Source of the DNA: a bacterium
GTDB lineage: Bacteria > Vulcanimicrobiota > Xenobia > Xenobiales > JADMJV01
Assembly (NCBI GenBank): GCA_018266105.1
Contig: JAFEBA010000001.1
Coordinates: 71,594-135,593, forward strand
DNA: 64,000 nt
Reading direction: 5' to 3'
Below, piece after piece: positions 3,110 through 56,757 of the stretch. Positions within the stretch are counted from its first letter, which is position 1. Every line of letters starts with the position of its first letter. Both the position numbers and the translations under genes were made by a program. The notes beneath the pieces were generated by a model that saw only the letters and a list, made by a program, of their open reading frames with translations, had not been told where the DNA came from and ran no database searches.

Positions 3110-4222
3110 TCAGGCGGGAAAGCTGATTTTCCCCAAGATAGCCGGTCTGCGGGCGCCCGTGACTGTAGCCAGCGAACTGGGGCGGCCGTGCACTGTTTCG
3201 TGGGCCATCAGGGCGAAGGCGCAGGCTTCGCGAGCGTCGGCGGTGATGCCGAATTCTTCGAAACCCACCAGCCGCCGGAGGGGGAGCGCGGCGGCCCGTT
3301 GCCTGAGCTCTTGCATTAACACCGGATTGTGGTAGCCGCCACCGCCAACCACCATCTCAAAGGGTCCCTGGATGAGGGGTTTCATCGAGTTCAGCAGGCT
3401 TTCGGCCGTCAAGGCCAGAGCCGTGCGCATCAGATCGGCCGGGCTGGCATGGTCCAGGAATGGCTGGATAAAGTCGCGTCCGAAATCCTCGCGTCCGGTA
3501 GATTTCGGTCCGGTGGCTGCAAAATATGGGTGGTTGAGCATTTGCTCAAGGATTTCTGGAATCACCCGTCCGCTGGCCGCGGTCGCCCCGCCGAAATCGG
3601 CCGGCTGGCTTAGAAAGCGCTCGGCCAGGGCGTCGGAAACCACGTTGCCCGGACCGCTGTCCCAGCCTTGAACTTCTCCCTGGTGCGGCACCCAGCTGAC
3701 ATTGGCCATTCCACCGATGTTGATGGCGGCCCGGTCTACCTCGGGCGAGCGCAGCAGCCAGTTGTCAAAGTAGGGGACCAGCGGTGCGGCCTGTCCGCCC
3801 AGGGCCATGTCGGCTGTGCGGAAGTCGCTGACGGTGAGGGTGGCGGTTCGTTCAGCGATGACGGCTGCTTCGCCGATTTGCAGGGTGGAGGGAGGCGTCT
3901 CGTAGGGCAGGTGAGCCACTGTCTGACCGTGAGAACCGATCAGGTCGGCCTTTTCGCCCTGTAAAACCTCCAGCGCCACCCGTGCGAATAAGTCGCCGAC
4001 CAGAAAGTGGGCTCGAGAAAGCTGGCGGACGCTGGCGCGATCCTCCATGAGGGCGAAAATCAAAGACCGAACTTCTTCTGGGTAGGGCTGGCTGACAAAA
4101 CGCAGCAGGCGCATGCGGCCGTTCTCGATCTGCACCAGCGCGGCGTCGATTGCGTCGGCCGATGTTCCCGAGATCATGCCCACCACTCGCGGAGCTGACA
4201 GGGCTCGATATTCCGCGATCAC
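3110..4222 (-). CDS. anmK: Anhydro-N-acetylmuramic acid kinase
   Basis: The N-terminal GMISGTSADAIDAAL motif and overall length (370 aa) match AnmK. The start overlaps the ubiE stop by 4 nt. Confidence 0.85.
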   Translation of the reverse strand: MIAEYRALSAPRVVGMISGTSADAIDAALVQIENGRMRLLRFVSQPYPEEVRSLIFALMEDRASVRQLSRAHFLVGDLFARVALEVLQGEKADLIGSHGQTVAHLPYETPPSTLQIGEAAVIAERTATLTVSDFRTADMALGGQAAPLVPYFDNWLLRSPEVDRAAINIGGMANVSWVPHQGEVQGWDSGPGNVVSDALAERFLSQPADFGGATAASGRVIPEILEQMLNHPYFAATGPKSTGREDFGRDFIQPFLDHASPADLMRTALALTAESLLNSMKPLIQGPFEMVVGGGGYHNPVLMQELRQRAAALPLRRLVGFEEFGITADAREACAFALMAHETVHGRPSSLATVTGARRPAILGKISFPA

Positions 4223-4899
4223 GGAACAGTCGCCAGGTGCACGGTCACAATGCCAAAGGTCAGGGGAATCGACCGCACGTTGAGCAGTCCGCCTTCGCGC
4301 ATGGACTGACTCAACTGCTCACGGTCCATAAAGCTGGCGATGGTATTGCACAGGTAGTGATAGGCCGAACTGTCTCCCGAGATGATTGATCCGAGTCGGG
4401 GTAAGATATGGCGCAGGTAGAGACCGTGCAGCCATCCCAGCAGACCGGTGGGTCGGGTCAGTTCTAGAGACATAATGCGGCCGCCGGGGCGCACCAGCCG
4501 ACGCAATTCCCGCCACAAGGCCTGCAAGTCGTGGATGTTGCGCGGTCCGAAGGCCAAAGCAGCGGCATCAAAGGGGCCATCCAGGGGAACCTGGGTGGCG
4601 TCTCCTTCGAGGAAGACCAGGTGCGGATATTTCTTGCGCGCCTGGCTCAGCATGCCGACCGCAAAATCCACTCCAGTCACCTGCCCCCCGGCTTTGGACA
4701 TTTCTTGGGAAAGGTCACCGGTGCCGCAGCACAGGTCCAGCACTCGGTCGCCGGGTTTGATGCCCAGCTCGCGCACGGCCCGGCGGCGCCAGACGAAGTC
4801 CAGCCCGCCACTCAGCACGTGGTTGAGCAGGTCGTAGCGAGCGTGGATGCGGTCGAACATCTCGGCAATGCGCGAGGGGGGCAGGGGCGGTGTACTCAA
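4219..4899 (-). CDS. ubiE: Demethylmenaquinone/ubiquinone C-methyltransferase (UbiE/MenG family)
   Basis: Start MFDRIHARYDLLNHVLSGGLDFVWRR... followed by the SAM motif VLDLCCGTGDL. Sits in the menaquinone operon. Confidence 0.85.
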   Translation of the reverse strand: MSTPPLPPSRIAEMFDRIHARYDLLNHVLSGGLDFVWRRRAVRELGIKPGDRVLDLCCGTGDLSQEMSKAGGQVTGVDFAVGMLSQARKKYPHLVFLEGDATQVPLDGPFDAAALAFGPRNIHDLQALWRELRRLVRPGGRIMSLELTRPTGLLGWLHGLYLRHILPRLGSIISGDSSAYHYLCNTIASFMDREQLSQSMREGGLLNVRSIPLTFGIVTVHLATVP

Positions 4900-5936
4900 G
4901 CGGCTTCCAATACCTCGAGCACGTTATAACAGCTGTCGCGCACCGCCGGAACGCGGCCCACGTTGCGGATCATCTGTGCGATCTGCTCGGCGTTGTAGGA
5001 GTAGGCCACGCCCGTGGCCGAGTTGACCAGTTCCTCCATCAGCACGCTGCCCAGGTCATCGGCTCCGAAGCTCAGGGCCAGCTGAGCCAGCTTGGCCCCC
5101 TCGGTGACCCAGCCGGCGTGGATGTGGGCGAAATTGTCCAGGTACAGGCGGGCGATGGCCAGGATGCGTAGATACTCGTGGCCGGCCGGGGGCACGGTGC
5201 GGGCCAGTCCGGTATAGTCGGGGGTCAGGCTCCAATGGATGAAACTACGGAAGCCGCCGGTGCGGTCCTGGAGGGCGCGCAACCGTTCCAGATGCTGGAT
5301 TCGCTGCTGATTGCTCTCGCCAAAGCCAAACACCATGGTAGCGGTGGACTCCATGCCTAGCTTGTGAGCGATTTCGTGAACTTCAAACCAGCGGTCGGCG
5401 CTGGTTTTCAGGGGAGAAACCTTGGTGCGAATCTCGTCGATCAGCATTTCCGCGCCTCCGCCCGGCAGCGAGTCCAGCCCGGCCTGTTTTAGTCTACGCA
5501 GGGTTTCTTCCAGCTCCAGTCCGCTGTGCAGCGCCATTTGGTCAACTTCCGTGGCCGTCAGGGAGTGCAGATAGACCTCCGGAAAACGAGCCTTGACGCT
5601 GGAAAACAGGTCTTCATAGTAGTCGATCTTGAGGTCGGGATTGTGCCCGCCCTGCAGCATCACGGTGGTGCCCTTGAACTTGAGCATCTCCTCGATCTTG
5701 CGAAAGATTTCGTCTTTGCTGCGTACGTAAGCCTCTTCGTGGCCGGGGGGACGATAGAATGCACAGAATTTGCAGTAGGTGATGCAAACATTGGTGTAAT
5801 TGATAATGCGGTCGCGCACAAAGGTAACTCGATTGTCGGGGAAGCGGCGACGCCGGTCCGCGTCCGCCCTTTCGCCCAGCTCCAGTAGATCCATGTCGAA
5901 CAGGGCCAGGCCCTGCTCCGGGGTTAGACGCTCCAT
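4896..5936 (-). CDS. Radical SAM enzyme of the futalosine pathway (MqnC/MqnE family)
   Basis: CxxxCxxC cluster motif NYTNVCITYCKFCAF. C-terminal LSFGADDLGSVLMEE is typical of MqnC/MqnE. Adjacent to an MqnA-like gene. Confidence 0.8.
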   Translation of the reverse strand: MERLTPEQGLALFDMDLLELGERADADRRRRFPDNRVTFVRDRIINYTNVCITYCKFCAFYRPPGHEEAYVRSKDEIFRKIEEMLKFKGTTVMLQGGHNPDLKIDYYEDLFSSVKARFPEVYLHSLTATEVDQMALHSGLELEETLRRLKQAGLDSLPGGGAEMLIDEIRTKVSPLKTSADRWFEVHEIAHKLGMESTATMVFGFGESNQQRIQHLERLRALQDRTGGFRSFIHWSLTPDYTGLARTVPPAGHEYLRILAIARLYLDNFAHIHAGWVTEGAKLAQLALSFGADDLGSVLMEELVNSATGVAYSYNAEQIAQMIRNVGRVPAVRDSCYNVLEVLEAA

Positions 5937-6703
5937 GCCTTCTCCTCGCTGAGTCGGGCTGGCAGTTGTACCAGACCCTGCTCGGCCGCCAGTTTGTAAA
6001 ATAGATTCAGAGACTTCAGTTCGGTCTCGCCGAGGTGATAGCGCATTCCGGCGAAGTAATTGTCCAGGCGCTCTGGAGAGAGTCCGGTGCGGCGAGCCGA
6101 TTCGGCCAAAATTTCATCCCAGTGCTGCAGGCCCCAGGCCCGGGAACGCTCAAGAATTTCTTCCGGGCCCTGGTCCAGTGTGCGTTTACACAGCCAGACG
6201 GCGAAGACCATGGGCAGACCGGTCTTTTCTTTCCAGGCCTGGCCAAGGTCCAGCTCATAGGGAGCGGCAGGCCAGGTCAGGGCCTGATCTCCAATCAGCA
6301 GTACGGCCGGCTGGTTCTCGCTCAGCACTGGGGGTTGCTCCAGATCCATGACTTTGATTCCCGGCACCACGATTTGCAGCAAGGCTCGCGAGGTGGCTGA
6401 GGCTTTGGTGACGGCTACGGTCCGACCCGGCAGCTGCTCGATGGGCAGCAGACTGAAGAGCTTTACGCTCTGCACGGCCGCTGGCGCCGACAGGCCAATT
6501 CCTTGCACCACTCGATAGAGCTGGTAACAGCTTAGATACTCGATGGAAGAAACGGCCGTGGCGTCCAGCTGGCCGGCTCGGGTCATGGCATTGAGGGCGC
6601 TGGGTTCAGCCCGGACCAGCTCGCCCTCAAAGCCAACCTGGTTGCGCTCCAGTCCTAAGGTGACGGGCAAAACGTTAATGTAGCTGATGCTGCCGAATTT
6701 CAA
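5924..6703 (-). CDS. MqnA/MqnD family protein (chorismate dehydratase-like, futalosine pathway)
   Basis: N-terminal KFGSISYINVLP signature of the MqnA/MqnD fold. 259 aa. Lies within the menaquinone operon. Confidence 0.75.
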   Translation of the reverse strand: MKFGSISYINVLPVTLGLERNQVGFEGELVRAEPSALNAMTRAGQLDATAVSSIEYLSCYQLYRVVQGIGLSAPAAVQSVKLFSLLPIEQLPGRTVAVTKASATSRALLQIVVPGIKVMDLEQPPVLSENQPAVLLIGDQALTWPAAPYELDLGQAWKEKTGLPMVFAVWLCKRTLDQGPEEILERSRAWGLQHWDEILAESARRTGLSPERLDNYFAGMRYHLGETELKSLNLFYKLAAEQGLVQLPARLSEEKAWSV

Positions 6704-7497
6704 AGCGGCTCCATCCCGGCTTCCACCGTGCCGGCCCGAGCTTCATTCCAGTCGATCAGGTCGGCCGGTCGCATTCGCCCGGAATAGGCCAGCTGTTCTT
6801 CCAGGCCCCATCCTCCCAGCGCGTCCGCTCCGAAGGCCAGCGAGCTTTGGGCCAGCTTGAAGCCTAAGGCTCCCCAGGAGGCGCGGATCCACTGAGCTGG
6901 CTCGGCCAGAGCTCGGCTGCGACTCAGAATCTCGATATCTCGGGGACCGTCGGTGGTGGCTCCGGGAATCACCACCAGGTCGCCTACCGCCCGGGGCAGA
7001 GGGATGATCTGTTCGGCATCGCGCAGCTGGTCCAGACGTTTTTCCAGGTCTTCGGCACTGTGCTCCGGTCCATAGACGAAGGCGGCCACCTTAGGCAACT
7101 TGAGAGCCGCGCAGTCCTGCCATCCCTGGGCTGGCGGAGAGCTGGGACCGGTCAGTTCGCCAGTAAACCAGCATAGACTATCCAGGCGGAGCTGATTGAG
7201 AATGTCCATCCCATATTTCTTCAGCCAGCCGGGGGAGAGTCCGTGCAGCCGGGCTGCGGGGAAGCGGGAACGTAGCTCCGCTACTTGGGCCAGAACCTGC
7301 TCAGGGGTCTCGTCCTTGCGAGGATGGAAGTGGACTTCTTTGACTTCGAGCGGGAGTTTGCCCCAATCCGGCGAGGTCGGCACCAGATGCACCGCCCCGT
7401 CGGCGCGTAACCAGACGCGCGGGTGGCGCTTGCGCCGGGCTTCGCGCCCCAATTCGAATAAATTCATCTCCGCCACTTTCACAGAACCAACTCCCAC
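6700..7497 (-). CDS. MqnC/MqnE-like paralog lacking the radical-SAM cysteine motif
   Basis: Aligns with the neighbouring MqnC/E at the N-terminus (NLFELGREARRKRHP vs DLLELGERADADRRRRFP), mid-region (ELRSRFPAARLHGLS vs SVKARFPEVYLHSLT) and C-terminus (KLAQSSLAFGADALGG vs KLAQLALSFGADDLGS). No CxxxCxxC is present. Confidence 0.6.
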   Translation of the reverse strand: MGVGSVKVAEMNLFELGREARRKRHPRVWLRADGAVHLVPTSPDWGKLPLEVKEVHFHPRKDETPEQVLAQVAELRSRFPAARLHGLSPGWLKKYGMDILNQLRLDSLCWFTGELTGPSSPPAQGWQDCAALKLPKVAAFVYGPEHSAEDLEKRLDQLRDAEQIIPLPRAVGDLVVIPGATTDGPRDIEILSRSRALAEPAQWIRASWGALGFKLAQSSLAFGADALGGWGLEEQLAYSGRMRPADLIDWNEARAGTVEAGMEPL

Positions 7498-8354
7498 AAC
7501 AAAGAAACCAATAGTGTCAGGCTGATTCCCACGTTAGCCTGAAAAAACGCCTTTTGCATCTGACTTAAGTCCCCTGGTTTCAGAAGCCTGTGTTCGTAAT
7601 AAAGCAAAGCCCCGATCAGCCAGCAGCCCAGAGCGTAAACCCAGCCGAGGCCGGCCGTGGACCCAACTCGCCAGAGGCCGGCCCAGGCCACCAGATGCAG
7701 GCCTTCTGAAACCCGAAAAGCCCTCTCGATGCCAAAGCGCGAAGGCACGGAATACAGGCCGACTTTGCGGTCGTGCTCGAAATCCTGACAGGCGTAAAGC
7801 ACGTCGAATCCGGCCACCCAGGTGAAAATGACCAGGCCCAACCAGAGCGGAGTTTCGCCCCAGTGACCGCAGACTGCCAGCCAGCCGCCGATGGGCGCGC
7901 ATGCCTGCACCAGGCCCAACCACAGATGGCATAGCCAGGTAAAACGCTTGGTGTAGCTGTATCCCAGCAGCAAGAGGGCGGCTAGAGGCCAGAGGCGATA
8001 GCAGAGTGGATTGAGCTGGTGGGCGGCCAGTGCAAGCAAGGCCAGGCTGGCCAGCATAAGCAATACTACGGGCAGGGCTCCGATCTGGCCGGCAGGCAGG
8101 TGGCGATTGGCCGTGCGCGGGTTGACCGCGTCGATTTTCCAATCAATCAGGCGATTGGCCGACATGCCGGCGGTGCGGGCTCCGAACATCGCCAGGGTGA
8201 CCCAGAAGCAGGTCGCCAAAGGAGGCAGCCCGCGCTGAGCCAGCAGCATCCCGGCATAGGCAAATGGCAGTGCGAACAAGGTCTGCTCGAAGCGAACCAG
8301 GTCGAAAAAGAGTTTTGTCCGCCCGACGCGGGGCGTATCTGCGGTGGCGACCAT
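7479..8354 (-). CDS. UbiA-family aromatic prenyltransferase (MqnP/MenA-like)
   Basis: NRLIDWKIDAVNPRT first Asp-rich motif and YACQDFEHDRKVG second motif. Multiple transmembrane helices. First gene of the menaquinone operon. Confidence 0.8.
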   Translation of the reverse strand: MVATADTPRVGRTKLFFDLVRFEQTLFALPFAYAGMLLAQRGLPPLATCFWVTLAMFGARTAGMSANRLIDWKIDAVNPRTANRHLPAGQIGALPVVLLMLASLALLALAAHQLNPLCYRLWPLAALLLLGYSYTKRFTWLCHLWLGLVQACAPIGGWLAVCGHWGETPLWLGLVIFTWVAGFDVLYACQDFEHDRKVGLYSVPSRFGIERAFRVSEGLHLVAWAGLWRVGSTAGLGWVYALGCWLIGALLYYEHRLLKPGDLSQMQKAFFQANVGISLTLLVSLLWELVL

Positions 8355-8453: not shown

Positions 8454-8777
8454 GTGTCTATGCAATTTTCCGTTCTGGATCCAGAGGGGAAGGTTCAGGC
8501 CTTGCTCGACGCCGATACGGTCCGGGATGCGTGCCGTCAGTGGGCACGTCAGACCAGCAACGAAGCCACAATCGAAGAGAAGGTGAGTGAAGCCAGGCTG
8601 TTTCAGATCGGACCGAATCTGTTGGCGGCTCGGCTTGAGCCTTATGTCGTGACCCCGGTCGGCGCTGAAAAGGAAGCGATGCGCCTGAATGCCGAGCTAC
8701 TGGACACTGATCTGCACTATCGTTCGGAGGCCAGTCTGCCCGACCCGCGTATGGTCGACACCGGTGGGCGAGGTTAA
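8454..8777 (+). CDS. Hypothetical protein (107 aa)
   Basis: ORF preceded by GGGAGG eight nt upstream of the ATG. No recognisable domain. Confidence 0.45.
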   Translation: MSMQFSVLDPEGKVQALLDADTVRDACRQWARQTSNEATIEEKVSEARLFQIGPNLLAARLEPYVVTPVGAEKEAMRLNAELLDTDLHYRSEASLPDPRMVDTGGRG

Positions 8778-9343
8778 ATAAAGACCAGCACGATCCAGCT
8801 GAGGAGTGCACTGCACAGATCCCACAACGAGATTTCTACTCCCCAGGAAAGGGAGAGGCGGGCAGGCAGGTAGGAGACGGTGAGGGCTGCGAGCCGCAGG
8901 CCAGCCCCCCACGGTCGGGCCAGGGTCATCAAGACGGCAAAGAAAAGGAAGGCCCAGATCGGCAGCTTGCGCCACCAGGCCACTTCTCCGAAGCGTTCTT
9001 CCTGGGCCATGCCCACCGCGAACATGCTTCCGAACAGTGCTACAGAGAGTGACCAGGCGTAACCGATCGGGTGTTTAGGTAAAAATAGATAGTCCCAGAG
9101 CAGCATTCCAATGGCCAGTACAAAGCCCATGCCGTAGACGACTTCGGCCAGCCTGTATAGAGAGCGCCTTTGCTGGGGCACCCATTTGGGGATGCGGGGG
9201 AATTCCAGAGCGACGGCCATGGCGAAAACGCACACGACCTGGGCGGGGGCCAGCAGCCAGAGCAGGACTTCAAAATGCTCGCGCAACCAGTCCAGCCAGC
9301 CCGGAAGCAATCCACGGCTGACCCCCAACAGCACCAGATCCAT
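8774..9343 (-). CDS. Hypothetical integral membrane protein
   Basis: At least five hydrophobic helices. The start was moved to an internal Met (MDLVLLGV...) to avoid overlap with the divergent gene. Confidence 0.45.
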   Translation of the reverse strand: MDLVLLGVSRGLLPGWLDWLREHFEVLLWLLAPAQVVCVFAMAVALEFPRIPKWVPQQRRSLYRLAEVVYGMGFVLAIGMLLWDYLFLPKHPIGYAWSLSVALFGSMFAVGMAQEERFGEVAWWRKLPIWAFLFFAVLMTLARPWGAGLRLAALTVSYLPARLSLSWGVEISLWDLCSALLSWIVLVFI

Positions 9344-9440
9344 CAGAATATTCCAACTGGACAAGCTCGCTTCTTCGCTGTTCAGCGCACTCAACCCGCT
9401 ACCAGGGAGGATGCCAAGGGGGGGTAGCCAAGGCTTGAGT

Positions 9441-10076
9441 ATGGCATTGAAAACCCTGGAAGAGTTGACCGCCCGCCGAACGGCTTGGGGCAAGGTGCGC
9501 ACCTGGATTCAGCAAGCCGGCAAGCGTGTCCAGGTTTTGCCGGCTGATAATCAGTCCAGCGCCGCCACTCTTCTAGCTCTGCAAATCAGCACGGCGACAC
9601 CACTCGGAGCTCTGGCTGATCAGACTGGTGGGTTGCTGGTGGATTCTGGCTGGCTACGAATTCTGGGCAGCGGACACGAACGGATGCCCTGGGGTCTGGC
9701 CGAGTGGAACGGCCTGCAGGCCGACCACCAGCCCGTGCCTGACAAGTTGATTCTGGCTCATGATGTGCTGGGCGGTTTTTTTGCTCGCGAACACAACAAG
9801 AAGATCAGCTACTTTTCGCCTGATTCGCTTCGCTGGGAGAATACTCAGCTAGGCTACAGTGACTGGTTGGCCTGGGCTCTGTCCGAGGACATGGGAGACT
9901 TTTACGAGCACTTCCGCTGGCGCGGTTGGGCCAAAGAGGTGTCCGCCCTGGAGCCGCAGCAAGGTCTGCTGGTCCAGCCTTATCTTTGGGAGAAGGGTCC
10001 GGTTCTGGCTCGCCGCAAACGAATCCCCATTCCGATTGTTGAGCTGTGGGGCCGCTATCAGGATTCCTCTGTTTAG
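9441..10076 (+). CDS. DUF2625-like protein
   Basis: MALKTLEEL...VQVLPAD...TGGLLVDSGWLRILGSGHERMP pattern recalled from the DUF2625 family. Start assigned to the internal ATG at 9441. Confidence 0.5.
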   Translation: MALKTLEELTARRTAWGKVRTWIQQAGKRVQVLPADNQSSAATLLALQISTATPLGALADQTGGLLVDSGWLRILGSGHERMPWGLAEWNGLQADHQPVPDKLILAHDVLGGFFAREHNKKISYFSPDSLRWENTQLGYSDWLAWALSEDMGDFYEHFRWRGWAKEVSALEPQQGLLVQPYLWEKGPVLARRKRIPIPIVELWGRYQDSSV

Positions 10077-13576: not shown

Positions 13577-14566
13577 GTGAGTCAGGATCTAGCCAGCCTT
13601 AAAGAAGAAATCGAGCAGCAAAGTGGTCTGCTGCGCAGACTGCAAAGCGAAATCGGACAGGTCATCGTCGGTCAGCAAGACGTGATCGAAAAGATCTTGG
13701 TGGGTCTGCTGGCCTCGGGACATATCCTCTTAGAAGGCCTCCCTGGACTGGCCAAGACTCTGACCTTCCGAACCCTGGCCAGTTCGATTCAGGCCAGCTT
13801 TCAGCGCATTCAGTTTACTCCGGACCTGCTCCCGGCCGACCTGATCGGCACTCATATTTTTAATCCACAGACGGCTGAGTTCAGCGTGAAGAAAGGTCCG
13901 CTGTTTGCGAATCTGATCCTGGCGGACGAGATTAACCGCGCCCCCGCCAAGGTTCAGTCGGCCTTGCTCGAAGCGATGCAGGAGCGCCAGGTCACGATCG
14001 GGGAGCAGTCGCACCCGTTGCCGAGTCCCTTTCTGGTACTGGCGACTCAGAATCCCATCGAGCAAGAGGGCACTTATCCGCTTCCTGAGGCTCAGGTCGA
14101 CCGCTTCATGTTGAAAGTTCGGGTGGACTATCCCAGTCGCGATGAAGAGTCCCAGATTATTGACCGTATGACTTCGGCTGTTGTGCCCGAGGCCAAACCT
14201 GTCCTGAACACCCAGCAACTGAGCGAGATGAGAGCCCTGTTGCCCAAGATCTACCTTGACCCTCGCGTGAAGAACTACATTCTGGACCTGGTCTTCTCGA
14301 CTCGAGAGCCGGAGAAGTTTCGCCTGCCCCATCTGCGCGGCATGATTGCCTGCGGGGCCTCTCCGCGCGCCAGTTTGTGCCTGGCCCAAGCGGCTCGAGC
14401 CTATGCTTTCTTGCGCGGACGGGCCCACGCCACCCCGGATGACGTCAAGTCGATTGGCTACGATGTGCTGCGTCACCGCGTCCAGCCCAGCTACGAAGCT
14501 GAGGCCGAGGATAAGACTTCTGAGAGCCTGCTCCGTGAAATTTTTGATCGGGTGGAAGTTCCCTGA
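13577..14566 (+). CDS. moxR: MoxR-family AAA+ ATPase
   Basis: VIVGQQDVIEKILVGLLASGHILLEGLPGLAKT Walker A context, length and operon partners (DUF58 and vWA genes) match MoxR. Confidence 0.9.
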   Translation: MSQDLASLKEEIEQQSGLLRRLQSEIGQVIVGQQDVIEKILVGLLASGHILLEGLPGLAKTLTFRTLASSIQASFQRIQFTPDLLPADLIGTHIFNPQTAEFSVKKGPLFANLILADEINRAPAKVQSALLEAMQERQVTIGEQSHPLPSPFLVLATQNPIEQEGTYPLPEAQVDRFMLKVRVDYPSRDEESQIIDRMTSAVVPEAKPVLNTQQLSEMRALLPKIYLDPRVKNYILDLVFSTREPEKFRLPHLRGMIACGASPRASLCLAQAARAYAFLRGRAHATPDDVKSIGYDVLRHRVQPSYEAEAEDKTSESLLREIFDRVEVP

Positions 14567-15498
14567 TGTTTTCCTGGCTGCGTCCCGCGCCGCCAGCGCC
14601 TCCTCCGGAACCACCACCACCAGGTAAACGGTTGCGCCGCCTGGAGGTGGTTGCCACTCGCATGGTTCAGGAAGTTTTCGCCGGGCAGTATGAGAGCCTG
14701 TTTAAGGGTCAGGGCGTTGAGTTTTCCGAGATTCGCGAATATCTTCCGGGCGACGATGTTCGTAGTTTGGACTGGAACGTCACCGCTCGCCTGGGTCGGC
14801 CTTTCATCAAACGCAACGACGAAGAGCGAGAGCTCTCGATGGTGGTGGTGATCGACTCCTCCGCCTCCATGGATTTCTCGAGTCAGGGCCGTAGCAAGCG
14901 CGAGGTGGCCGCCGAGCTGGCGGCCATGCTGGCTTTCTCGGCACTTCAGAATGGAGACAAAGTCGGCCTGGTGCGGTTTTGCAAGGACGTAGAGCACGTG
15001 TTGCCGCCCCGGAAGGGTCGGCGCCACCTGATGCGCATTCTCGGCGAGGTGCTGGCGGCTCCGGCTCAGCCGGACGATTCCCGCCTGGACAGGGTCCTGG
15101 ACGGCTTGAATCAGATGTTTAAGCGGCGGGCCCTGGTCTTTGTTATGTCCGATTTGATGTGCCCGGATTTCTCTAAGGCCCTGGCTCGCGCACAGAAACG
15201 CCACGATCTCTCGTTGTTCCGTATTGTGGACCCCTGGGAGAAGTCGCTGCCCGACCTGGGTCGGGTGCGCGTGCGCGACCTCGAGTCGGGCGAGACCGCT
15301 CGTATAGATACCTCTCGGGCCGACTTCCGCAAGGCGTATGTCGACCGCCAGCAGCACAACTGGCTCAAGATCAAGCAGCAACTGGATGCTCAGCAAATCG
15401 ACTGGGCCGAATTCTCTACGCACGAACCCGTGGATAAGCCGCTCACCCGCTTTTTCCAGCAAAAGAAACGCCGTCGAGTGCGCCGGGGGCGTTCGTGA
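14566..15498 (+). CDS. DUF58 protein (vWA-like MoxR partner)
   Basis: GQGVEFSEIREYLPGDDVRSLDWNVTAR and VVVIDSSASM motifs. The ATG overlaps the moxR stop. Confidence 0.85.
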   Translation: MFSWLRPAPPAPPPEPPPPGKRLRRLEVVATRMVQEVFAGQYESLFKGQGVEFSEIREYLPGDDVRSLDWNVTARLGRPFIKRNDEERELSMVVVIDSSASMDFSSQGRSKREVAAELAAMLAFSALQNGDKVGLVRFCKDVEHVLPPRKGRRHLMRILGEVLAAPAQPDDSRLDRVLDGLNQMFKRRALVFVMSDLMCPDFSKALARAQKRHDLSLFRIVDPWEKSLPDLGRVRVRDLESGETARIDTSRADFRKAYVDRQQHNWLKIKQQLDAQQIDWAEFSTHEPVDKPLTRFFQQKKRRRVRRGRS

Positions 15499-16466
15499 AA
15501 AAATGGCTGGTCATCGGTCTGTTGGTCTGGCCGGCCTGGGCTCAGACGCCCTCTCCCACGCCCAAAGGACCGCCCATCCCGGTTGAGGCCAGCCTGACTC
15601 AGGAGCCTTTCAAAATCACGGTCAAGGCCGACAAAGACCATTTTGAAATGGGTCAATCCGTGCATCTGGTCTACCAGATTCAAGGACCGGAAAATGCCCA
15701 GTTTGCTTTTCCGGAAGCTGAGAAGTTCGAGATCAAACCCTTTGAGGTGCGGGACGCCAACCCCGTCACACTGACCGGAATCCAGGGACAGCGCAACTGG
15801 GAATATCGGGTCAAGGCGACCTCCTATGAGACCGGGCATTTAAAACTGCCCGAGGCGACCTTGAGTGTTAAGCTTAAGAGTGATGGTGCATCGCAGGACC
15901 TCAAGTTGCCGGGTCTCTTTCTGGATGTGGATCGGGTGCCGTTGGCCAAGCAGGACAAGCCAGATGAGGTGCGCGACGCCCATAATCTGGCTCTAAACGG
16001 GATTCCTCTGGTGGTGGTCCTGGCGGTTTTGTTGGGGGCTATCCTGGTGGCCTTGATTTGTTGGTGGTTGGTTCGCTGGTGGCGGCGCCCCCGCCGGGTC
16101 CAGGCTCCCCCGGCCCTGCCCCCTTATCCGTGGGCGTTGAAGCAGCTAGCGGATCTGAACGCCCAGCGCCCCGATCAAAAAGGCCAGTGGGAAGCTTTCT
16201 ATGACCAGCTCTCTCACATACTGCGTTTCTATTTGGGCTGGCGCTTCAAGATGTCTTTATTGGAGCAGACCACCAGTGAAACCATGCGTCACCTGACCCT
16301 TCCCGACGCTTCCCACCGGCAGCTCAAGGAGTTACTGGAAACCGCCGACATGGTCAAGTTTGCTCGCTCTTACCCCAGCCTGGAGAAGTCGAGCGAGCAC
16401 CTGAGCTGGGCTCAGATGCTGGTGGAAGGCAACGCCCCTGCAGAAGTGGAGGTTGCTAAGGTATGA
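15495..16466 (+). CDS. DUF4381-like membrane protein of the Bat operon
   Basis: Signal peptide plus a central transmembrane helix. Its position between DUF58 and BatA matches the conserved DUF4381 slot. The GTG start overlaps the upstream stop (GTGA). Confidence 0.55.
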   Translation: MKKWLVIGLLVWPAWAQTPSPTPKGPPIPVEASLTQEPFKITVKADKDHFEMGQSVHLVYQIQGPENAQFAFPEAEKFEIKPFEVRDANPVTLTGIQGQRNWEYRVKATSYETGHLKLPEATLSVKLKSDGASQDLKLPGLFLDVDRVPLAKQDKPDEVRDAHNLALNGIPLVVVLAVLLGAILVALICWWLVRWWRRPRRVQAPPALPPYPWALKQLADLNAQRPDQKGQWEAFYDQLSHILRFYLGWRFKMSLLEQTTSETMRHLTLPDASHRQLKELLETADMVKFARSYPSLEKSSEHLSWAQMLVEGNAPAEVEVAKV

Positions 16467-17467
16467 CTCGGGAGTTCTTGCACTGGGCCTATCCTCAGGT
16501 CGGCATCCTTGCGGTTCTTTTGCTGCTGGCACTCTGGCCTAACTGGCTACGCGCTCGTCGTCGGCGTCCGAGCCTGGACTGGCCCAGTCTGGCGCTGGTG
16601 AAGGGTCTGCCCAGGGTGGCTGTGCATTCCGAGGGTCGCCGCCCCTGGACCTGGTTGCTCACTGCGGTTTTGCTGGGCCTGGTGGCCCTGGCCCGCCCCC
16701 AGATGGGGCTGGAGACTCGAGTTCAGACTTCCCAGGGCATCGACATCGTCTTGTGTCTGGACACCTCCACCAGCATGGAGGCCATGGATTTGCTCCCCAA
16801 TCGCCTGGCGGCGGCCGTGGCGGTGAGTAAGAAATTCGTGGAAGGCCGCAGCAATGACCGCATCGGTCTGGTCTGTTTTGGAGGCACGGCTCTGACCCAG
16901 TGCCCCCTGACCGGTGACCATCAGACTTTAATGACTTATCTGGACCAGATTGAACCGGGACAGACCGGGGTGGACGGTACGGCCATTGGAACCGGGATTG
17001 CGACTTCGGTCAACCGATTGAAGAAGGCCAATGGAAAGAGCAAAGTGATTATTCTGCTCACCGACGGTCGCAATAACGGCGGAGAAATCGACCCGCTGGC
17101 GGCGGCCGACCTGGCCAAGAAGCTGGGAGTGCGCATCTATACCATCGGCGCCGCCACGCTGGGCCAGGCCCCGGTTCGAGTTCACGATCCCCTTGGCTTT
17201 GACCGTCAGGTGATGATCCGCGTGGATCTGGACGAAGACAGCCTGCGCGAGATCGCCTTGCGCACCGGCGGACAGTTCTTTCGGGCCACCGACGCTGACA
17301 GTCTGGCCTCTATTTTCAATCAGATCGACCGCCTGGAAAAGAACGACGCTCCCGCCCGGGCTCAGGTGGAATACCGCGAGTTGTTCGACTGGCCCTTGCT
17401 GGTTGCCATCCTCTGTTTGATGCTGTTTCTCTGGGAAGAACACGGACCACGAAGGGAGAGACCTTAG
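16463..17467 (+). CDS. batA: vWA-domain protein BatA
   Basis: N-terminal transmembrane helices followed by a vWA MIDAS motif DIVLCLDTSTSM. Confidence 0.8.
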   Translation: MTREFLHWAYPQVGILAVLLLLALWPNWLRARRRRPSLDWPSLALVKGLPRVAVHSEGRRPWTWLLTAVLLGLVALARPQMGLETRVQTSQGIDIVLCLDTSTSMEAMDLLPNRLAAAVAVSKKFVEGRSNDRIGLVCFGGTALTQCPLTGDHQTLMTYLDQIEPGQTGVDGTAIGTGIATSVNRLKKANGKSKVIILLTDGRNNGGEIDPLAAADLAKKLGVRIYTIGAATLGQAPVRVHDPLGFDRQVMIRVDLDEDSLREIALRTGGQFFRATDADSLASIFNQIDRLEKNDAPARAQVEYRELFDWPLLVAILCLMLFLWEEHGPRRERP

Positions 17468-18438
17468 TGTTCCTCCATCCCTACCGCTTACTGTTGCTCC
17501 TCCCCGCGTTTTTGCTGGGAGTGTTCTGGCTTCGCCACTACGCGGTCCCGGCCGGAGTCTCGGCTGACGTCTGGAAACGTCTGGGACGCGAATCAAGGCC
17601 GGGCCGGGAACGCACTGTGGCCTTCCTGCGCTGGGCGGCCTTGCTGTGCTGGCTGATCGCCTGGGCCGGTCCGCGCTGGGGTATGGAACGCATTCGGGTG
17701 GAGCGCACCTCGTATGACATCGTCTTTGCGGTGGACTGCTCGCGAAGCATGCTGGCTGAAGACCTGCCTCCTTCCCGGAAACTGGCGGCGCGACAAGAAC
17801 TGGCCGACCTGATTCACCGTCTGGAAGGAAATCGCTTCGGTCTGGTTGGATTCGCCGAGGACGCTTTTGTTTTCTGTCCGCTCACCCGTGACAGTGGGGC
17901 CGCCACGCTCTTTTTGGACCAGCTGCAAGAGAACTCATTTCCCCGTCAAGGCACCAACTTGAGCAAGGCCCTCCAGGCCGCGGCCGGATTGTTCCCGGGC
18001 AAGTCCTCTCAGGGTGCGCGCCTGATCGTGTTGCTTTCGGACGGCGAGGATCGGCACACCAAACCGGTCGAGGTGGCCCGGCAACTGGCCAGCACGGGAA
18101 TCGTGGTTTATACGGTGGCTCTGGGCAGTCCACAGGGGGCCCCAATTCCCCTGGAGGACGGTGGCAATCTCAAGGACAGCAAGGGTGAGACTGTCATGAC
18201 CAGGGCTGACGACAAGACTTTGACTGAAATCGCCTTGACGACCCACGGTAAGGCCTTCCGTCTGGCCAGTGCCACCGACCACCTGGACGGCCTGGTGCAG
18301 TCCATCCAGGAGCAGGACCGCCGCCGGGTGGAGCAAGAGTTGAGCAGTCGCCAGCGCCACCAGTATGCCTGGTTCCTGGTGTTGGGGTTGATTTTTCTAG
18401 CCCTGGCCCAGTTGCTGCTGCCGAGGGTAAAAGGATGA
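17467..18438 (+). CDS. batB: vWA-domain protein BatB
   Basis: vWA MIDAS motif DIVFAVDCSRSM. C-terminal transmembrane helix. Confidence 0.8.
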   Translation: MFLHPYRLLLLLPAFLLGVFWLRHYAVPAGVSADVWKRLGRESRPGRERTVAFLRWAALLCWLIAWAGPRWGMERIRVERTSYDIVFAVDCSRSMLAEDLPPSRKLAARQELADLIHRLEGNRFGLVGFAEDAFVFCPLTRDSGAATLFLDQLQENSFPRQGTNLSKALQAAAGLFPGKSSQGARLIVLLSDGEDRHTKPVEVARQLASTGIVVYTVALGSPQGAPIPLEDGGNLKDSKGETVMTRADDKTLTEIALTTHGKAFRLASATDHLDGLVQSIQEQDRRRVEQELSSRQRHQYAWFLVLGLIFLALAQLLLPRVKG

Positions 18439-19220
18439 AGCGCCTGCTACTGTTGGTCCTGCTGCTTCTGGCCCAACCCGCCTGGGCTCACTTGCCATTG
18501 AAAATGTGGCAGGCAGAGCGTAAGGCGTCCGAGGGCAAGTGGGCCGAGGCGGCCGCGCTCTATAGGGAAGCTCTCAAAGAGCAACCCAAGAACGCCGAAG
18601 CAACCTACAACCTGGCTCTTTGTCTGTACCGTCAGGGCCAGTTCAGCAAAGCCGAAGAGCAGTTTAAGAAAGCCCTGGAATACGCCTCGCCGGGGGAGCT
18701 CAAGGGGAAAGCCGCCTATAATCTGGGCAATACGCAGTTTCGACAGAAGGATACAGGCCCCAAGCCGGAGGACCGAGAGAAGCGTCTCAAGGAGGCTTTG
18801 GACTCCTATAAGACCGCCTTGCGCTGGAATGAGTACGACGATGATGCGCGTTACAACATTCAGGTCGTGCTTGATCTCTTAAAGAAGCCGGACCCGCCGA
18901 AGAAGAATCAGGATAAAGATAAGGATAAGAAGAACCAGGACGACAAGAAGAAGGACAAAAAGCAGAAGCCAAAGCCGGACCGCAAGCCGGACCCCAAGCA
19001 AAAGCCGGATTCCAAGAAGGATCAGGGTAAGAGCAGTCCTACGCCGACTCCCGCTCCGCCCAAGCAGCAGCCTCAGCAGCCGCCGCCGCCCAAGCCGGCC
19101 GACCGGGACAAAGAGGACGCTGAGCGCATGCTGCAGTTCTTCCAGAACCGCGAAAAGGATGCGCAGAAGAAGCGCTTCCCGGCCCGACGTATGGCACCCA
19201 CCGGGGAGGACGATTGGTAA
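18435..19220 (+). CDS. batC: TPR protein BatC with a Lys/Asp-rich and Pro/Gln-rich C-terminal extension
   Basis: TPR repeats (AEATYNLALCLYRQGQFSKAEEQFKKAL), then KKNQDKDKDKKNQDDKKKDKKQKPKPD... low complexity. Confidence 0.7.
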   Translation: MKRLLLLVLLLLAQPAWAHLPLKMWQAERKASEGKWAEAAALYREALKEQPKNAEATYNLALCLYRQGQFSKAEEQFKKALEYASPGELKGKAAYNLGNTQFRQKDTGPKPEDREKRLKEALDSYKTALRWNEYDDDARYNIQVVLDLLKKPDPPKKNQDKDKDKKNQDDKKKDKKQKPKPDRKPDPKQKPDSKKDQGKSSPTPTPAPPKQQPQQPPPPKPADRDKEDAERMLQFFQNREKDAQKKRFPARRMAPTGEDDW

Positions 19221-20929
19221 GGCGTCTTTTCAGCATTCTGATCTTGTTGACGCTGGTCGCCTGGGCTCAGGGGGTGGAGTGGGTTGCCGCTTTGAGCACC
19301 ACTCGCTGCAATGTTGGTGAGCAGGTGATGTTGGAGTTGCGCTTGAGCGGAGCCAGTAGCGATCCTCTCGAGCCTCGCGTCCCGGACATCGCGGGCATCA
19401 GCATGGAGTTTGCTGGCGCCAGCAAGAATGTGTCGATGATCAATGGCGTCACCTCATCCCAGAGCACCTACACCTACGTGCTTACGCCCACCCAACAGGG
19501 GAGCCTGACCGTGCCCCCCATTTCTATCAGCGTGGATGGCCATACCTATACCTCCGAGCCGCTCAAGCTGCAGGTCGGAGTTAGCTCTGGACAAACTTCA
19601 CCGGGACCACCCCCACCAGGCTTTCCTCCCGGTCAATCCCCCTGGGGAGGGCCTCAGGATCAGCTCCCGGTGACGCCCGCGTCGCCCGAGGCGCAACCCG
19701 TTCTGGTTGAGTGTGAAGTATCCAACACCCACCCCTACGTGGGAGAACTGGTGGTCTATACTTTTCGTTTTCTTCATCGGGTTCAACTGGTGGGTGGGGT
19801 GAACTTCGAACCGCCCCCGCCCACCGGCCTTTTGCGCGAAGACCTGGGCCAGTCTCAAAGTCAGGTCACCCGCAACGGCGTGGCCTACGCTCAGAGCGAA
19901 GTTCGCACGGCCTTTTTTCCAACCTCGCCGGGACCCCTGACGATCGCTCCAACTCGCCTGAGCTGTCAGGTTGCACCGGATTTTTTGGACCGGAACTTCA
20001 CCATGGTGGGGGATGGAGTCCGAGAGATGGCCACTCAGCCGATTGAACTTCAGGTCTTGCCTCTGCCCACCGAAGGTCGGCCACCGTCTTTCAATGGCGC
20101 CGTGGGCCGGAACTTTGAGCTGAAAGCCTCGCTGAGCAAGACCGAGATCAAAGCCGGTGAGCCGGTCAAGTTGCAGGTGAGCATCAGCGGAGACGAGCAT
20201 CCCGACCTCCTCCTCGATCCTGCTCTTCCCGCCTGGCCCGGAGTTCGTAGTTACAGCTCCGACGCATCGGCGCTGCCCTACGAGAAGCCGAATTTTCGAG
20301 CCACCAAGACCTTCAAGATTCCTCTGGTTCCCCAGCAGGCCGGACAGTTTCAGTTGAGCGATCTGAGCTGGTCCTATTTTGACCCCAGTGCGCGGCGCTA
20401 TGTGACTCTGACCGCCAGCCCGATGGTTCTAAAGGTTGAAGGGGGTCCCCAGGCTACTGCCAGTCATTCTACCTCGCCTTCGGCTCCGGTGGATCCGCTT
20501 CGGGGTCCGCAACCTGGTGTGGATGCCTCTCAGGGCTGGGCCCTGGAGTCGGGAATTGCTCTGCTTTCCGTCCTGCCCTGGGGGCTGAGCCTGGCGCTCC
20601 TGGTATTGGGCCACGCTCATTATCAGTACGAGATGAGTTTGCAGACCGACCGGGCTCGCTTGCGTCGAATCGAGCGGCAAGTGGCTCGAGCCAAAACTTT
20701 GGAAGAACTTTCGCATCTGGCTTACCAGGGGTTGGAAATTCGCAAGGGGATGGCCTTGAAGGGCCTACCCTTGCTTCGCCTGCGCGAGATCCTTTCCGGG
20801 GAAATGGTCGACCAGTTGGAAGCCGCAGAGGCGGCCAGATATTCCCCGGAAGGGGACAGCGACCCGAAGAAAATGGATTCATTCCGCCAGTTGCTGCTGC
20901 GCGAATTGCGGGCAGGTGACCTCAAATGA
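19214..20929 (+). CDS. batD: BatD-like oxygen-tolerance protein
   Basis: N-terminal BatD fold signature (EWVAALSTTRCNVGEQVMLELRL...ISMEF...TYTYVLTPTQQGSLTVPPISISVDG). C-terminal transmembrane helix. TTG start overlapping the upstream stop. Confidence 0.75.
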   Translation: MVRRLFSILILLTLVAWAQGVEWVAALSTTRCNVGEQVMLELRLSGASSDPLEPRVPDIAGISMEFAGASKNVSMINGVTSSQSTYTYVLTPTQQGSLTVPPISISVDGHTYTSEPLKLQVGVSSGQTSPGPPPPGFPPGQSPWGGPQDQLPVTPASPEAQPVLVECEVSNTHPYVGELVVYTFRFLHRVQLVGGVNFEPPPPTGLLREDLGQSQSQVTRNGVAYAQSEVRTAFFPTSPGPLTIAPTRLSCQVAPDFLDRNFTMVGDGVREMATQPIELQVLPLPTEGRPPSFNGAVGRNFELKASLSKTEIKAGEPVKLQVSISGDEHPDLLLDPALPAWPGVRSYSSDASALPYEKPNFRATKTFKIPLVPQQAGQFQLSDLSWSYFDPSARRYVTLTASPMVLKVEGGPQATASHSTSPSAPVDPLRGPQPGVDASQGWALESGIALLSVLPWGLSLALLVLGHAHYQYEMSLQTDRARLRRIERQVARAKTLEELSHLAYQGLEIRKGMALKGLPLLRLREILSGEMVDQLEAAEAARYSPEGDSDPKKMDSFRQLLLRELRAGDLK

Positions 20930-23549: not shown

Positions 23550-24722
23550 TCAGATCAGCGGACGCCCCAGAACAGGTTCGCCCACCTCAAAGGCGGCGGC
23601 GACGGTGGCGCCCAGGTCGGCGAAGGTGGGCCGGATTTTGAAGTCCTGGCCACCCTCGACGGAGGGGCTGTAGAGAAGCAGTGGAGCGTATTCGCGACTG
23701 TGGTCGGTGCTGGGCGTGGTCGGGTCATTGCCGTGGTCGGCAGTGATGAGAAGGAGATCACCTGGTCGCATCACGGAAATCAGTTCGCCCACGTAGCCGT
23801 CGAATTGCTCAAGGCAGGCGGCGAAGCCGGCGGGGTCGTTGCGGTGCCCATAGAGCATGTCGAAATCCTCGAAGTTGACGAAGAAAAAGCCGCTCTGGTG
23901 CTCGCTGGCCAGGCGCATGGTCGCCTGATGATGCTCGGGGTTGCTCTGGGTGCGTTCCGAGTAAACGAATCCGCGACCGCCAAAGACTTCGGGGATGACC
24001 CCTACGCCAGCGGTGAAGACGCCCGCGGCGTAGAGCGAGTCGATCACATTAGCCGGCGGTGTGATCGGGAAGTCTTTGCGCCGCTCGGTGCGGCGGAAAT
24101 CAGCCGCGCAAGTGCCTTCGAATGGGCGGGCGATGACCCGCTGGACGCCGTGAGGCGGCTGCAGCAATTGGCGAGCTTTGCGGCAGATATCGTAGAGTTC
24201 CTCGATGGGCACGACGGCCTCGTTGCAGGCGATCTGAAAAACGCTGTCGGCACTGGTGTAAACAATGGGGGAGCCGGTGGCCAGGTGTGTTTCGCCCAGC
24301 TCTTTCAGAATGGTTGTGCCCGAAGAAGCCTTGTTGCCGATCACCTTACGACCGATGGCCGTCTCGAAATCGGCGATCAGATCGGTCGGAAAACCGTCCG
24401 GATAGGTAGGGAAGCGCTCGTCTACGCTGATTCCCATCATTTCCCAGTGGCCGGTGACCGTGTCTTTGCCGCCCTGACTGGTTTCTTGAAGGCGCCCGTA
24501 ACTGCCGATCGGTTTGGCCACCGGTTGGCCGCCGGCCAGGTCCAGGGCGTTACCCAGACCCAGTGAGCGCAGATGAGGGATTTTTAACCCGCCCACGGCC
24601 CTGGCAGTGTGAACCAGCGTGTCGCCAAGGTTGTCACCAAAATCACCGAACTCGGCCGCGTCCGGGGCCGTGCCCGCGCCGCAGCCGTCCATCACCAATA
24701 GAAAAACTCGTTGAAATCTCAT
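23550..24722 (-). CDS. deoB: Phosphopentomutase
   Basis: MRFQRVFLLVMDGCGAGTAPDAAEFGDFGDNLG N-terminus and HGNDPTTPSTDHSREYAPLL C-terminal region are typical of DeoB. Confidence 0.85.
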   Translation of the reverse strand: MRFQRVFLLVMDGCGAGTAPDAAEFGDFGDNLGDTLVHTARAVGGLKIPHLRSLGLGNALDLAGGQPVAKPIGSYGRLQETSQGGKDTVTGHWEMMGISVDERFPTYPDGFPTDLIADFETAIGRKVIGNKASSGTTILKELGETHLATGSPIVYTSADSVFQIACNEAVVPIEELYDICRKARQLLQPPHGVQRVIARPFEGTCAADFRRTERRKDFPITPPANVIDSLYAAGVFTAGVGVIPEVFGGRGFVYSERTQSNPEHHQATMRLASEHQSGFFFVNFEDFDMLYGHRNDPAGFAACLEQFDGYVGELISVMRPGDLLLITADHGNDPTTPSTDHSREYAPLLLYSPSVEGGQDFKIRPTFADLGATVAAAFEVGEPVLGRPLI

Positions 24723-24784
24723 GGGGCTGGGCTTTGGCGCCCAGGTTCAGGGACCCTCCCGGCGAAAGCGGGTCGGCTGTGGGA

Positions 24785-55889: not shown

Positions 55890-55968
55890 GGGGCGGGCGT
55901 TGGGTTCGGCGGTTGGATCGCAGATCCTGGAGGACCAAGGGGGGTGGGCTTGAAGCGCTGCAAAGCTT

Positions 55969-56757
55969 ATGAGTTCGTCCAATAGTCTTTCTAAACTGAA
56001 GCTTCAGGGCTTCAATAACCTCACAAAAGCTCTCAGCTTCAATATCTATGACGTCTGCTATGCGGTCACTCCCGAGCAGCGCACCGCCTACATAGAGTAC
56101 ATTAACCAGTGCTACAACGCTGACCGCTTGACCACGATTTTGACGGATGTGGCGCGCATTGTGGGCGCAAACATCTTAAACATCGCTCGCCAGGACTACG
56201 ATCCGCAGGGGGCGTCGGTGACCATGCTGATTTCCGAACAGCCGGTGACTCACGTCAACGGGCTGGCCTCGGAAGCGGTGGTGGGCCACCTGGATAAGAG
56301 TCACATCACGGTGCATACCTATCCGGAAACCCATCCCCACAATGGTATCGCCACCTTTCGAGCGGACATCGATGTGGCCACATGTGGTGTGATCTCGCCG
56401 CTCAAGGCCTTGAACTACCTGATCGAGAGCTTCGAATCGGATATCGTGGTCACCGACTACCGCGTGCGCGGCTTTACGCGCGACGTGAAAGGGAAGAAGC
56501 ATTACATCGATCACAAGATCAATTCGATCCAGGAGTATCTTTCCAAGACCATCCGCCAACGCTACGAGATGATCGACGTGAACGTCTATCAGGAAAACCT
56601 CTTCCACACCAAGATGCAACTGAGCGAGTTCGACCTGGATAACTACTTATTTGGCGAGAAAGCGGCCAACCTGCCGGGCAAGCAAAGGGTGCGCATAGAG
56701 AACCAGCTGAAGCGGGAGCTACAGGAACTGTTTCACGGTCGCAACCTGGTGGATTGA
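55969..56757 (+). CDS. speD: S-adenosylmethionine decarboxylase proenzyme (class 1B, E. coli SpeD-type)
   Basis: [24 protein letters not shown]...[24 protein letters not shown] closely parallels the E. coli SpeD N-terminus, including the processing region. Confidence 0.85.

Follow-up and report, generated by a model that had tools for sequence, protein, structure and literature searches.

An open reading frame (ORF) at positions 6700-7497 of the minus strand, which we call X, lies within the futalosine menaquinone operon of a 64,000-nucleotide stretch of DNA from a Xenobia bacterium (contig JAFEBA010000001.1, positions 71,594 to 135,593; hereafter the window, whose own numbering we use throughout). 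An earlier note had described its product as a cysteine-less homologue of the radical S-adenosylmethionine (SAM) enzymes MqnC and MqnE, and this description is confirmed by BLASTP, by profile comparisons, and by the predicted fold. The family to which X belongs is an uncharacterised, cluster-less offshoot of MqnE that no Pfam or NCBIfam model describes. X stands in the position of mqnE and, as judged from sequence comparisons, most likely descends from it and not from the adjacent mqnC. As to its role, we are inclined, with some reserve, to see in X a shortened MqnE derivative that would bind a ligand or a partner without performing radical chemistry, the radical step being left to a canonical MqnE elsewhere in the genome.

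The four local similarities to the neighbouring MqnC from which the description started were all reproduced with BLASTP and MAFFT. Residues 73-234 of X match residues 112-302 of MqnC with 26% identity over 191 amino acids (aa) and E=2e-8. A profile of 26 X homologues, compared using hhalign with those of the two enzymes, is significantly similar to both, with E=1.2e-16 for MqnE (score 120.2, 222 columns) and E=1.3e-13 for MqnC (score 99.2). MqnE is also the best sequence-profile match of X in the PDB. Matches of the single sequence to the domain libraries fall below threshold, which explains why X is annotated as ‘hypothetical’. TIGR00423 reaches E=1.3e-5 (single-sequence NCBIfam search, sub-threshold), and the CofH_C domain (PF19288) aligns with residues 188-239 at 16.5 bits and E=0.0076, below its gathering (GA) cut-off of 27. 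The equivalog models give 19.1 bits for MqnE (TIGR03700, cut-off 434.55) and 24.0 bits for MqnC (TIGR03699, cut-off 428.1), and the radical-SAM profile PF04055 gives no match to X even at E≤1. At the level of profiles, the sequences indicate a clear homology of the CofH_C region.

The AlphaFold (AF2) model of X is a beta/alpha triosephosphate isomerase (TIM) barrel (predicted local distance difference test, pLDDT, 85.8; predicted template modelling score, pTM, 0.86). Its best fold match in the PDB, according to Foldseek, is MqnE (6xig, E=1.7e-10, template modelling score, TM, 0.73). The two MqnE structures 6xig and 6xi9 come at the top, followed by ThiH, HydG, PylB, and BioB; NosL is among the top matches, and generic TIM barrels are matched too. 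The predicted structure retains the TIM-barrel core fold of the radical-SAM enzymes. X counts 260 aa against 346 aa for MqnC, which makes it 86 aa shorter, close to the difference of about 80 aa that had been estimated at first.

Mapping the missing cluster ligands and the GGE motif, as the earlier note had proposed, shows that the cysteine loop and the motifs of strands beta2 and beta4 are all gone. Radical-SAM enzymes bind SAM through a GGE-type motif on beta2, a ribose motif on beta4, and a GxIxGxxE motif on beta5, and we assume from this general knowledge that the aligned positions of X correspond to these roles. In the MAFFT alignment, which includes the N-terminal helix and the replaced cysteine loop, VWLRADGAVHLVPTSPDW (7363-7416, minus strand; residues 18-35 in the numbering of the 255-aa form discussed below) stands opposite ..NYTNVCITYCKFC, at the place of the CxxxCxxC loop that holds the [4Fe-4S] cluster in MqnE and MqnC. 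In the same alignment, HFHPRK replaces HIVGG or LQGG on beta2, so that the GGE-type motif has disappeared, and SLCWFTGEL replaces SLPGGGAE on beta4, with loss of the PGGGAE ribose motif. The only remnants of the SAM-binding motifs are YG(P)E on beta5 and PLP on beta6.

The CxxxCxxC motif is absent from all six frames of 6600-7600. None of the 26 close homologues of X (40-100% identity, 220-281 aa) has it, nor do the 21 inspected (215-298 aa) of the 23 clusters at 50% identity retrieved by an exhaustive profile search (E<1e-30; 108-298 aa, the shortest being fragments). One representative, P0045, is entirely free of cysteine. The idea that the motif is hidden by a frameshift or a sequencing error was rejected, since no frame contains it and independent assemblies agree. 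A split gene with a separate cluster-binding piece was also rejected, since the sole CxxxCxxC in the window's open frames of at least 80 codons is that of MqnC.

The order mqnP-X-mqnA-mqnC-menG was found in 20 out of 20 homologue loci of other assemblies, down to 31-40% identity. These loci are L001-L019 and the low-GC L023; L003 and L004 show a single place in two assemblies, and a further locus, L028, is the contig of the window itself. Of the X loci from reference genomes, most bear the label Vulcanimicrobiota, Candidatus Xenobia, or Eremiobacteraeota, and four bear the label ‘uncultured Burkholderiales bacterium’. When compared with the nearest relatives, the ratio of nonsynonymous to synonymous substitution rates (dN/dS) is 0.088-0.092 for X, 0.07-0.15 for mqnP, mqnA, menG, and anmK, and 0.02-0.06 for mqnC, all values being approximate because dS is near saturation (1.0-1.5). 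Over greater distances, X evolves faster than any other gene of the block: at L012 its identity is 36%, as compared with 75% for MqnC, 63% for MqnP, and 44% for MqnA.

That X might be a pseudogene in decay, an artefact of assembly or frameshift, or one half of a split radical-SAM gene is an idea to which we give almost no credence. X is indeed short, lacks the catalytic motif, has no Pfam match above threshold, and evolves faster than its neighbours, but these traits coexist with an intact frame of similar length (215-298 aa among those inspected) in clusters from independent assemblies. The low dN/dS (about 0.09), the failure of any frame to restore the cysteine motif, the lack of any other CxxxCxxC-bearing ORF in the window that could supply the missing half, and the confident and complete barrel predicted by AlphaFold refute this idea. 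The earlier suggestion that X is not decaying therefore stands, with synteny in 20/20 loci and dN/dS about 0.09. By these comparisons, X is a real gene under purifying selection comparable to that on the flanking enzymes, and no pseudogene. It shows features by which pseudoenzymes are recognised, namely loss of the parent's cofactor residues, purifying selection, and conserved synteny.

What X has kept is mostly C-terminal. A conserved core covering beta5-beta8 and the CofH_C region (6763-7092, minus strand; residues 126-235) was delimited by alignment, hhalign, and column conservation, and includes the motifs VYGPE, LPLPRAVGDL, GATTDG, VRASW, GFKLAQ, AFGAD, and GGWGLEE. Among 19 representatives, mean column conservation is 0.58-0.70 at residues 151-235, compared with 0.36-0.41 in the N-terminal half. 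X, MqnE, and MqnC have in common the C-terminal set T.G..D...R, W198, G.K.AQ, FGAD, and G..E. The residues conserved across the whole X family are mostly in this part of the protein; G103, Y132, P158, S197, and W198 are among those at or beside predicted strand ends, and others are in loops and helices. The loop AVGDLVVIPGATTDG (6946-6990, minus strand; residues 160-174) is among the most conserved parts of the narrow clade, with invariant columns at G162, D163, L164, G169, A170, T171, T172, and G174, and four of these (G162, D163, T172, and G174) are at least 90% conserved family-wide. In the AlphaFold model its pLDDT is below 50 at residues 161-171, and we regard the loop as a candidate lid or binding loop. 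Residues H46, H48, and H75, which resemble an amidohydrolase-like HxH-His metal site, were considered and rejected as a family feature because they are not kept in divergent X proteins.

The earlier note had called X a paralogue of the adjacent radical-SAM enzyme. Its membership in the MqnC/MqnE family holds, but X is closer to MqnE than to the neighbouring MqnC. Outside its own family, the best matches of the X profile are MqnE-MqnC fusions and MqnE-like proteins. We observed natural fusions of 731-1121 aa (P0050-P0053 and P0055) in which MqnE forms the N-terminal and MqnC the C-terminal half, each scoring above its equivalog cut-off.

A family of longer proteins that we call Y (P0057, P0061, P0063, P0064, P0078, P0180, and others; 328-434 aa) matches the X profile with a score of 133.6 and E=1.4e-18 (hhalign). 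Its members occupy a slot identical to that of X, in the order UbiA-Y-MqnA-MqnC, and have three invariant cysteines (C70, C74, and C77 in alignment A3). Pfam recognises only CofH_C in them. The Y profile scores 465 against MqnE and 362 against MqnC, and most of the canonical proteins nearest to Y carry an MqnE annotation. In Y proteins, the GG on beta2 and the PGGGAE on beta4 are missing, and the residue before the third cysteine is V, L, or I, whereas the MqnC set has an invariant aromatic residue there and the MqnE set an aromatic consensus. In the Y line, these sequences suggest, radical-SAM function may have gone before the cysteines did.

The same slot is held by canonical enzymes in other lineages. 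A near-canonical MqnE (P0060) is found at L026 in the order UbiD-UbiA-UbiX-MqnE-MqnA, its gene overlapping mqnA, and at L029 a canonical MqnE comes directly after UbiA. X, between mqnP and mqnA, has the position beside mqnA that characterises MqnE, and would in Candidatus Xenobia (Vulcanimicrobiota/Eremiobacterota) have stayed in the ancestral mqnE slot (mqnP-[mqnE]-mqnA-mqnC). The derivation of X from mqnE is thus indicated by the order of the profile scores (X-Y above X-MqnE above X-MqnC), by the closeness of Y to MqnE, and by the slot shared with canonical MqnE. We consider it distinctly improbable that X arose instead by duplication of the adjacent mqnC. This scenario would fit the presence of X in the same operon, close to mqnC, the marginally higher score of the MqnC model on the single sequence (24.0 bits, against 19.1 for MqnE), and a neighbour-joining (NJ) tree that does not fix the root. 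It is contradicted by the profile-profile comparisons, which favour MqnE for X (120 versus 99) and clearly so for its cysteine-bearing sister Y (465 versus 362), by the annotation of most of Y's nearest canonical relatives as MqnE, and by the canonical MqnE found in this slot in other lineages.

Other proteins appear to have followed a similar course. Those of the Z family (P0410, P0138, and P0130; about 300 aa) have no cysteine triad, and in a high-GC (69%) diderm lineage the Z gene (L027, 10001-10921) comes immediately before mqnA-mqnC, with BamA, OmpH, and LpxI among its neighbours. The MqnC beside it is 48% identical to that of the window, and Z is not detectably present in Xenobia. The triad is also missing from P0058, from a Xenobia metagenome-assembled genome (MAG), and P0107, encoded upstream of mqnA, has only a CxxC. 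In the bootstrapped NJ tree, X is monophyletic (100%) and groups with Y and Z in a clade (99.5%) that may reflect long-branch attraction. X is one member of a broader clade of eroded slot proteins, in which Y has the three cysteines and X, Z, and P0058 do not. The downstream radical-SAM gene was tried as the MqnE of the X, Y, or Z operons and rejected, as all of these genes exceed the MqnC cut-off.

The MqnE reaction requires addition of a 5'-deoxyadenosyl radical. Lacking a [4Fe-4S] cluster, X would be unable to form this radical and so would not be the aminofutalosine synthase of the pathway. With the cluster ligands lost, X is not expected to perform radical chemistry, and it is very unlikely that X catalyses a SAM-dependent radical addition to 3-enolpyruvyl-benzoate. 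The strong constraint on MqnA and MqnC indicates that the pathway is in use and needs aminofutalosine.

We suggest that X probably still binds an intermediate of the pathway, because its conserved residues gather in the retained half. This half would be the part common to MqnE and MqnC, whose substrates share a 3-carboxyphenyl moiety. The ligand could be a benzoate-type intermediate, either 3-enolpyruvyl-benzoate or a compound resembling aminofutalosine or dehypoxanthinyl futalosine (DHFL), and the low confidence of the AVGDLVVIPGATTDG loop would fit a lid that becomes ordered upon binding of a ligand or a partner. MqnA would be the probable partner; X is translationally coupled to it, as canonical MqnE is. 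This coupling to mqnA, common to X and to the canonical mqnE of L026, suggests that MqnE and MqnA have long been partners, an association which X may still serve. The radical step itself would be carried out by a canonical MqnE encoded elsewhere.

Several observations weigh against this account. The role of X is deduced from the features it has kept and lost. Neither tblastn nor the Pfam analysis of the window's ORFs revealed a canonical or second MqnE anywhere in the 64 kb of the window or, in the 20 other loci, up to 10 kb away from X. A protein search started from canonical MqnE gave as its best 120 matches the close relatives of that enzyme, none of them labelled Xenobia, which tells us nothing either way. 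The near-saturation of dS and the possible long-branch attraction count here as well. The fast evolution of X and the poor conservation of its N-terminal part would also fit an enzyme that uses only its C-terminal face, as they fit a relaxed non-catalytic role. The data do not distinguish a scaffold, carrier, or regulator, as the earlier note had it, from a new non-radical catalyst.

The catalytic alternative is that X became a neofunctionalised non-radical enzyme on the MqnE scaffold and handles the MqnE product through a retained adenosine/aryl-keto-acid pocket, which we think unlikely but deserving of attention. Candidate activities would be those of an aminofutalosine nucleosidase (the function of MqnB or MTAN), a deaminase, or an MqnD-like cleavage, and Pfam found no mqnB, MTAN, or mqnD among the ORFs of the window or in the operon. 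However, these genes are commonly unlinked from mqn operons, so that their local absence says little. Many family-wide conserved residues are polar (D163, T172, D177, S197, K204, Q207, E224, and R233); they are mostly C-terminal, some at or near predicted strand ends, and speak for such an enzyme, as does the AVGDLVVIPGATTDG loop, which is highly conserved yet flexible. Most of the conserved residues are nevertheless already invariant in MqnE and MqnC and do not require a new catalytic set, and the HxH/His75 cluster of the narrow clade, which has the look of a metal site, is absent from divergent X proteins. The dN/dS of X is as low as that of genuine enzymes, and TIM barrels, of which generic examples are among the fold matches, often host hydrolase or aldolase chemistry.

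It is also conceivable, if very improbable in our opinion, that X genomes have no canonical MqnE and that X is directly involved in the formation of aminofutalosine or DHFL, either by presenting the substrate in trans to another radical-SAM enzyme or by an unknown route. X occupies the mqnE slot, no other MqnE-like gene is found in the 64-kb window or in the ~20 kb around the 20 other X loci, and MqnA and MqnC are strongly constrained, in line with a pathway that is used. But the MqnE reaction calls for a 5'-deoxyadenosyl radical, X has none of the cluster ligands and one representative is devoid of cysteine, and mqn genes are often scattered in genomes of which only a small part is visible here. 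The other loci also have, up to 10 kb from X, no second gene of the MqnA/MqnD or MqnC/MqnE type. In a bolder version, to which we attach a small chance, both Xenobia and the Z lineage would lack any canonical aminofutalosine synthase, and a re-wired futalosine pathway would depend on the cluster-less slot protein as a catalyst or co-catalyst. This protein could then be a non-radical enzyme on a radical-SAM barrel, for example an aminofutalosine nucleosidase, or a subunit that presents the substrate to another radical-SAM enzyme. We still prefer, with the reserve expressed above, a ligand- or partner-binding X beside a canonical MqnE.

The ORF list and the Pfam and NCBIfam matches define a co-directional block of six genes on the minus strand, mqnP-X-mqnA-mqnC-menG-anmK. 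The X frame is 265 aa long from its first GTG (7497), and the NCBI annotation has a 255-aa form with ATG 7467 as its start (JST97_00370, a 100% match, P0001). A start at GTG 7482, giving 260 aa at 6700-7482 with the TGA stop at 6700-6702, is more likely given its GTGA overlap with the mqnP stop and the N-termini of the homologues. In the latter, the LFELG motif is preceded by five to seven residues, and the homologue P0005 has a leucine at the position of the window's internal ATG. The overlaps first reported were 4 nt and 19 nt. That of 4 nt with mqnA is correct (TTGA, shared by the X stop and the TTG start of mqnA), whereas the upstream one is probably also of 4 nt (GTGA) and not of 19 nt.

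Directly upstream of X is mqnP (7479-8354, minus strand), coding for a menaquinone prenyltransferase of the UbiA type (PF01040, 3.2e-53). It scores 308 bits with TIGR01475 (cut-off 180.8) and 358 bits with NF041586 (MqnP_DT), below the cut-off of 430. Downstream, mqnA (5924-6703, minus strand; TTG start) encodes the chorismate dehydratase (PF02621, 2.8e-58). An assignment of this gene to MqnD was rejected, as the closest solved structure is the chorismate dehydratase 7ahr (4e-20), ahead of the MqnD 2czl (3e-8). The next gene, mqnC (4896-5936, minus strand), encodes the radical-SAM cyclic dehypoxanthinyl futalosine synthase with the motif CITYCKFC; it exceeds the cut-off of TIGR03699 (455.3 bits versus 428.1) and remains below that of the MqnE model TIGR03700 (337.7 versus 434.55). 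It is followed by menG/ubiE (4219-4899, minus strand), a demethylmenaquinone methyltransferase gene (PF01209, 9.8e-45; TIGR01934, 204.7 bits, cut-off 158.35).

The last gene of the block, anmK (3110-4222, minus strand), encodes an anhydro-N-acetylmuramic acid kinase (NF007148, 391.1 bits, cut-off 387) and shares 4 nt with menG, after which it comes in most X-type operons (L001-L005, L007-L010, L012, L014-L016, and L023). It is absent from the Y-type operons and from the subgroup L011/L013/L017/L018. It has no obvious link to menaquinone and may be a passenger only.

Elsewhere in the window, the plus strand carries a Bat-like operon of the aerotolerance type (13577-20929), with genes for a MoxR AAA ATPase, a DUF58 protein, an unassigned ORF, two VWA proteins, a TPR protein, and BatD. 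A Bat-like block is also found near the mqn operon of a relative (L002, 1-5512). Large ORFs of 739-974 aa with a high GC content at third codon positions (GC3) are found at 39433-42120 (minus), 42195-44414 (plus), 48312-51236 (plus), and 53454-55982 (minus), and have no Pfam match at E≤1e-5. Two pairs of ORFs on opposite strands overlap. The metalloenzyme-superfamily ORF at 23550-24722 (minus) and the SAM-methyltransferase ORF at 24563-25654 (plus) share about 160 nt as called, and for one of them the start probably lies further inside. The DUF2625 ORF (9186-10076, plus) overlaps a predicted membrane-protein ORF (8774-9502, minus) through a long N-terminal extension of the DUF2625 call; the domain match begins at residue 93, and the true start is thus probably internal.

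These proteins form an erosion series in a single slot, from canonical MqnE through Y, which has kept the cysteines only, and a CxxC-only form to the cysteine-less X and Z. Such a series, provided by nature, lends itself to the study of what a radical-SAM barrel can do without its cluster and why dead paralogues persist. It also has consequences for annotation. The JGI label ‘aminodeoxyfutalosine synthase’ is given to some Y proteins, to the CxxC-only P0107, and to the cysteine-less P0130 (as seen among P0057, P0078, P0077, P0182, P0107, and P0130). The futalosine pathway of Eremiobacterota/Xenobia and of related MAGs may thus be scored as complete for the wrong reason. Should X genomes truly be without a canonical MqnE, menaquinone biosynthesis would have a variant not known so far. 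Literature searches yielded no account of MqnE homologues without cysteines, nor of the futalosine pathway in Eremiobacterota/Xenobia; the one related finding is that the cultured phylum member Vulcanimicrobium alpinus makes the menaquinone MK-9 (PMC9758169).

Among known systems, X most resembles MqnE (TIGR03700; 6XI9 and 6XIG, from Pedobacter heparinus), its best match in the PDB by fold and by sequence profile, with which it shares the slot between mqnP and mqnA and the conserved C-terminal T.G..D...R, W, G.K.AQ, FGAD, and G..E. It differs from MqnE in lacking CxxxCxxC, HIVGG (of the GGE type), and PGGGAE, and in being about 110 aa shorter. MqnC (TIGR03699) is of the same CofH/MqnC/MqnE family and the same operon, but it is a full radical-SAM enzyme that exceeds the equivalog cut-off, and X is nearer to MqnE and Y. 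The Y proteins, the closest profile match and occupants of the same slot, have derived motifs in common with X (EVH on beta2, VRxxW, ALG(L/F)K, and FGADxLGW); unlike X, they retain the three cysteines and the full length. Z shares with X the lack of the cysteine triad, the position immediately upstream of mqnA-mqnC, a C-terminus of the CofH_C type, and the NJ clade, whereas its N-terminal half and its motifs differ (FAPLPR, IQVDW, and YGPKLAQ in Z). A more distant parallel is the degenerate Dph2 subunit of the eukaryotic Dph1-Dph2 pair, a pseudoenzyme of the radical-SAM type. The Dph proteins have a different fold, keep a cluster, and form a heteromer, which for X is no more than a possibility. 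Like X, Dph2 is a homologue of a radical enzyme that has lost catalytic determinants and is maintained by selection beside active relatives.

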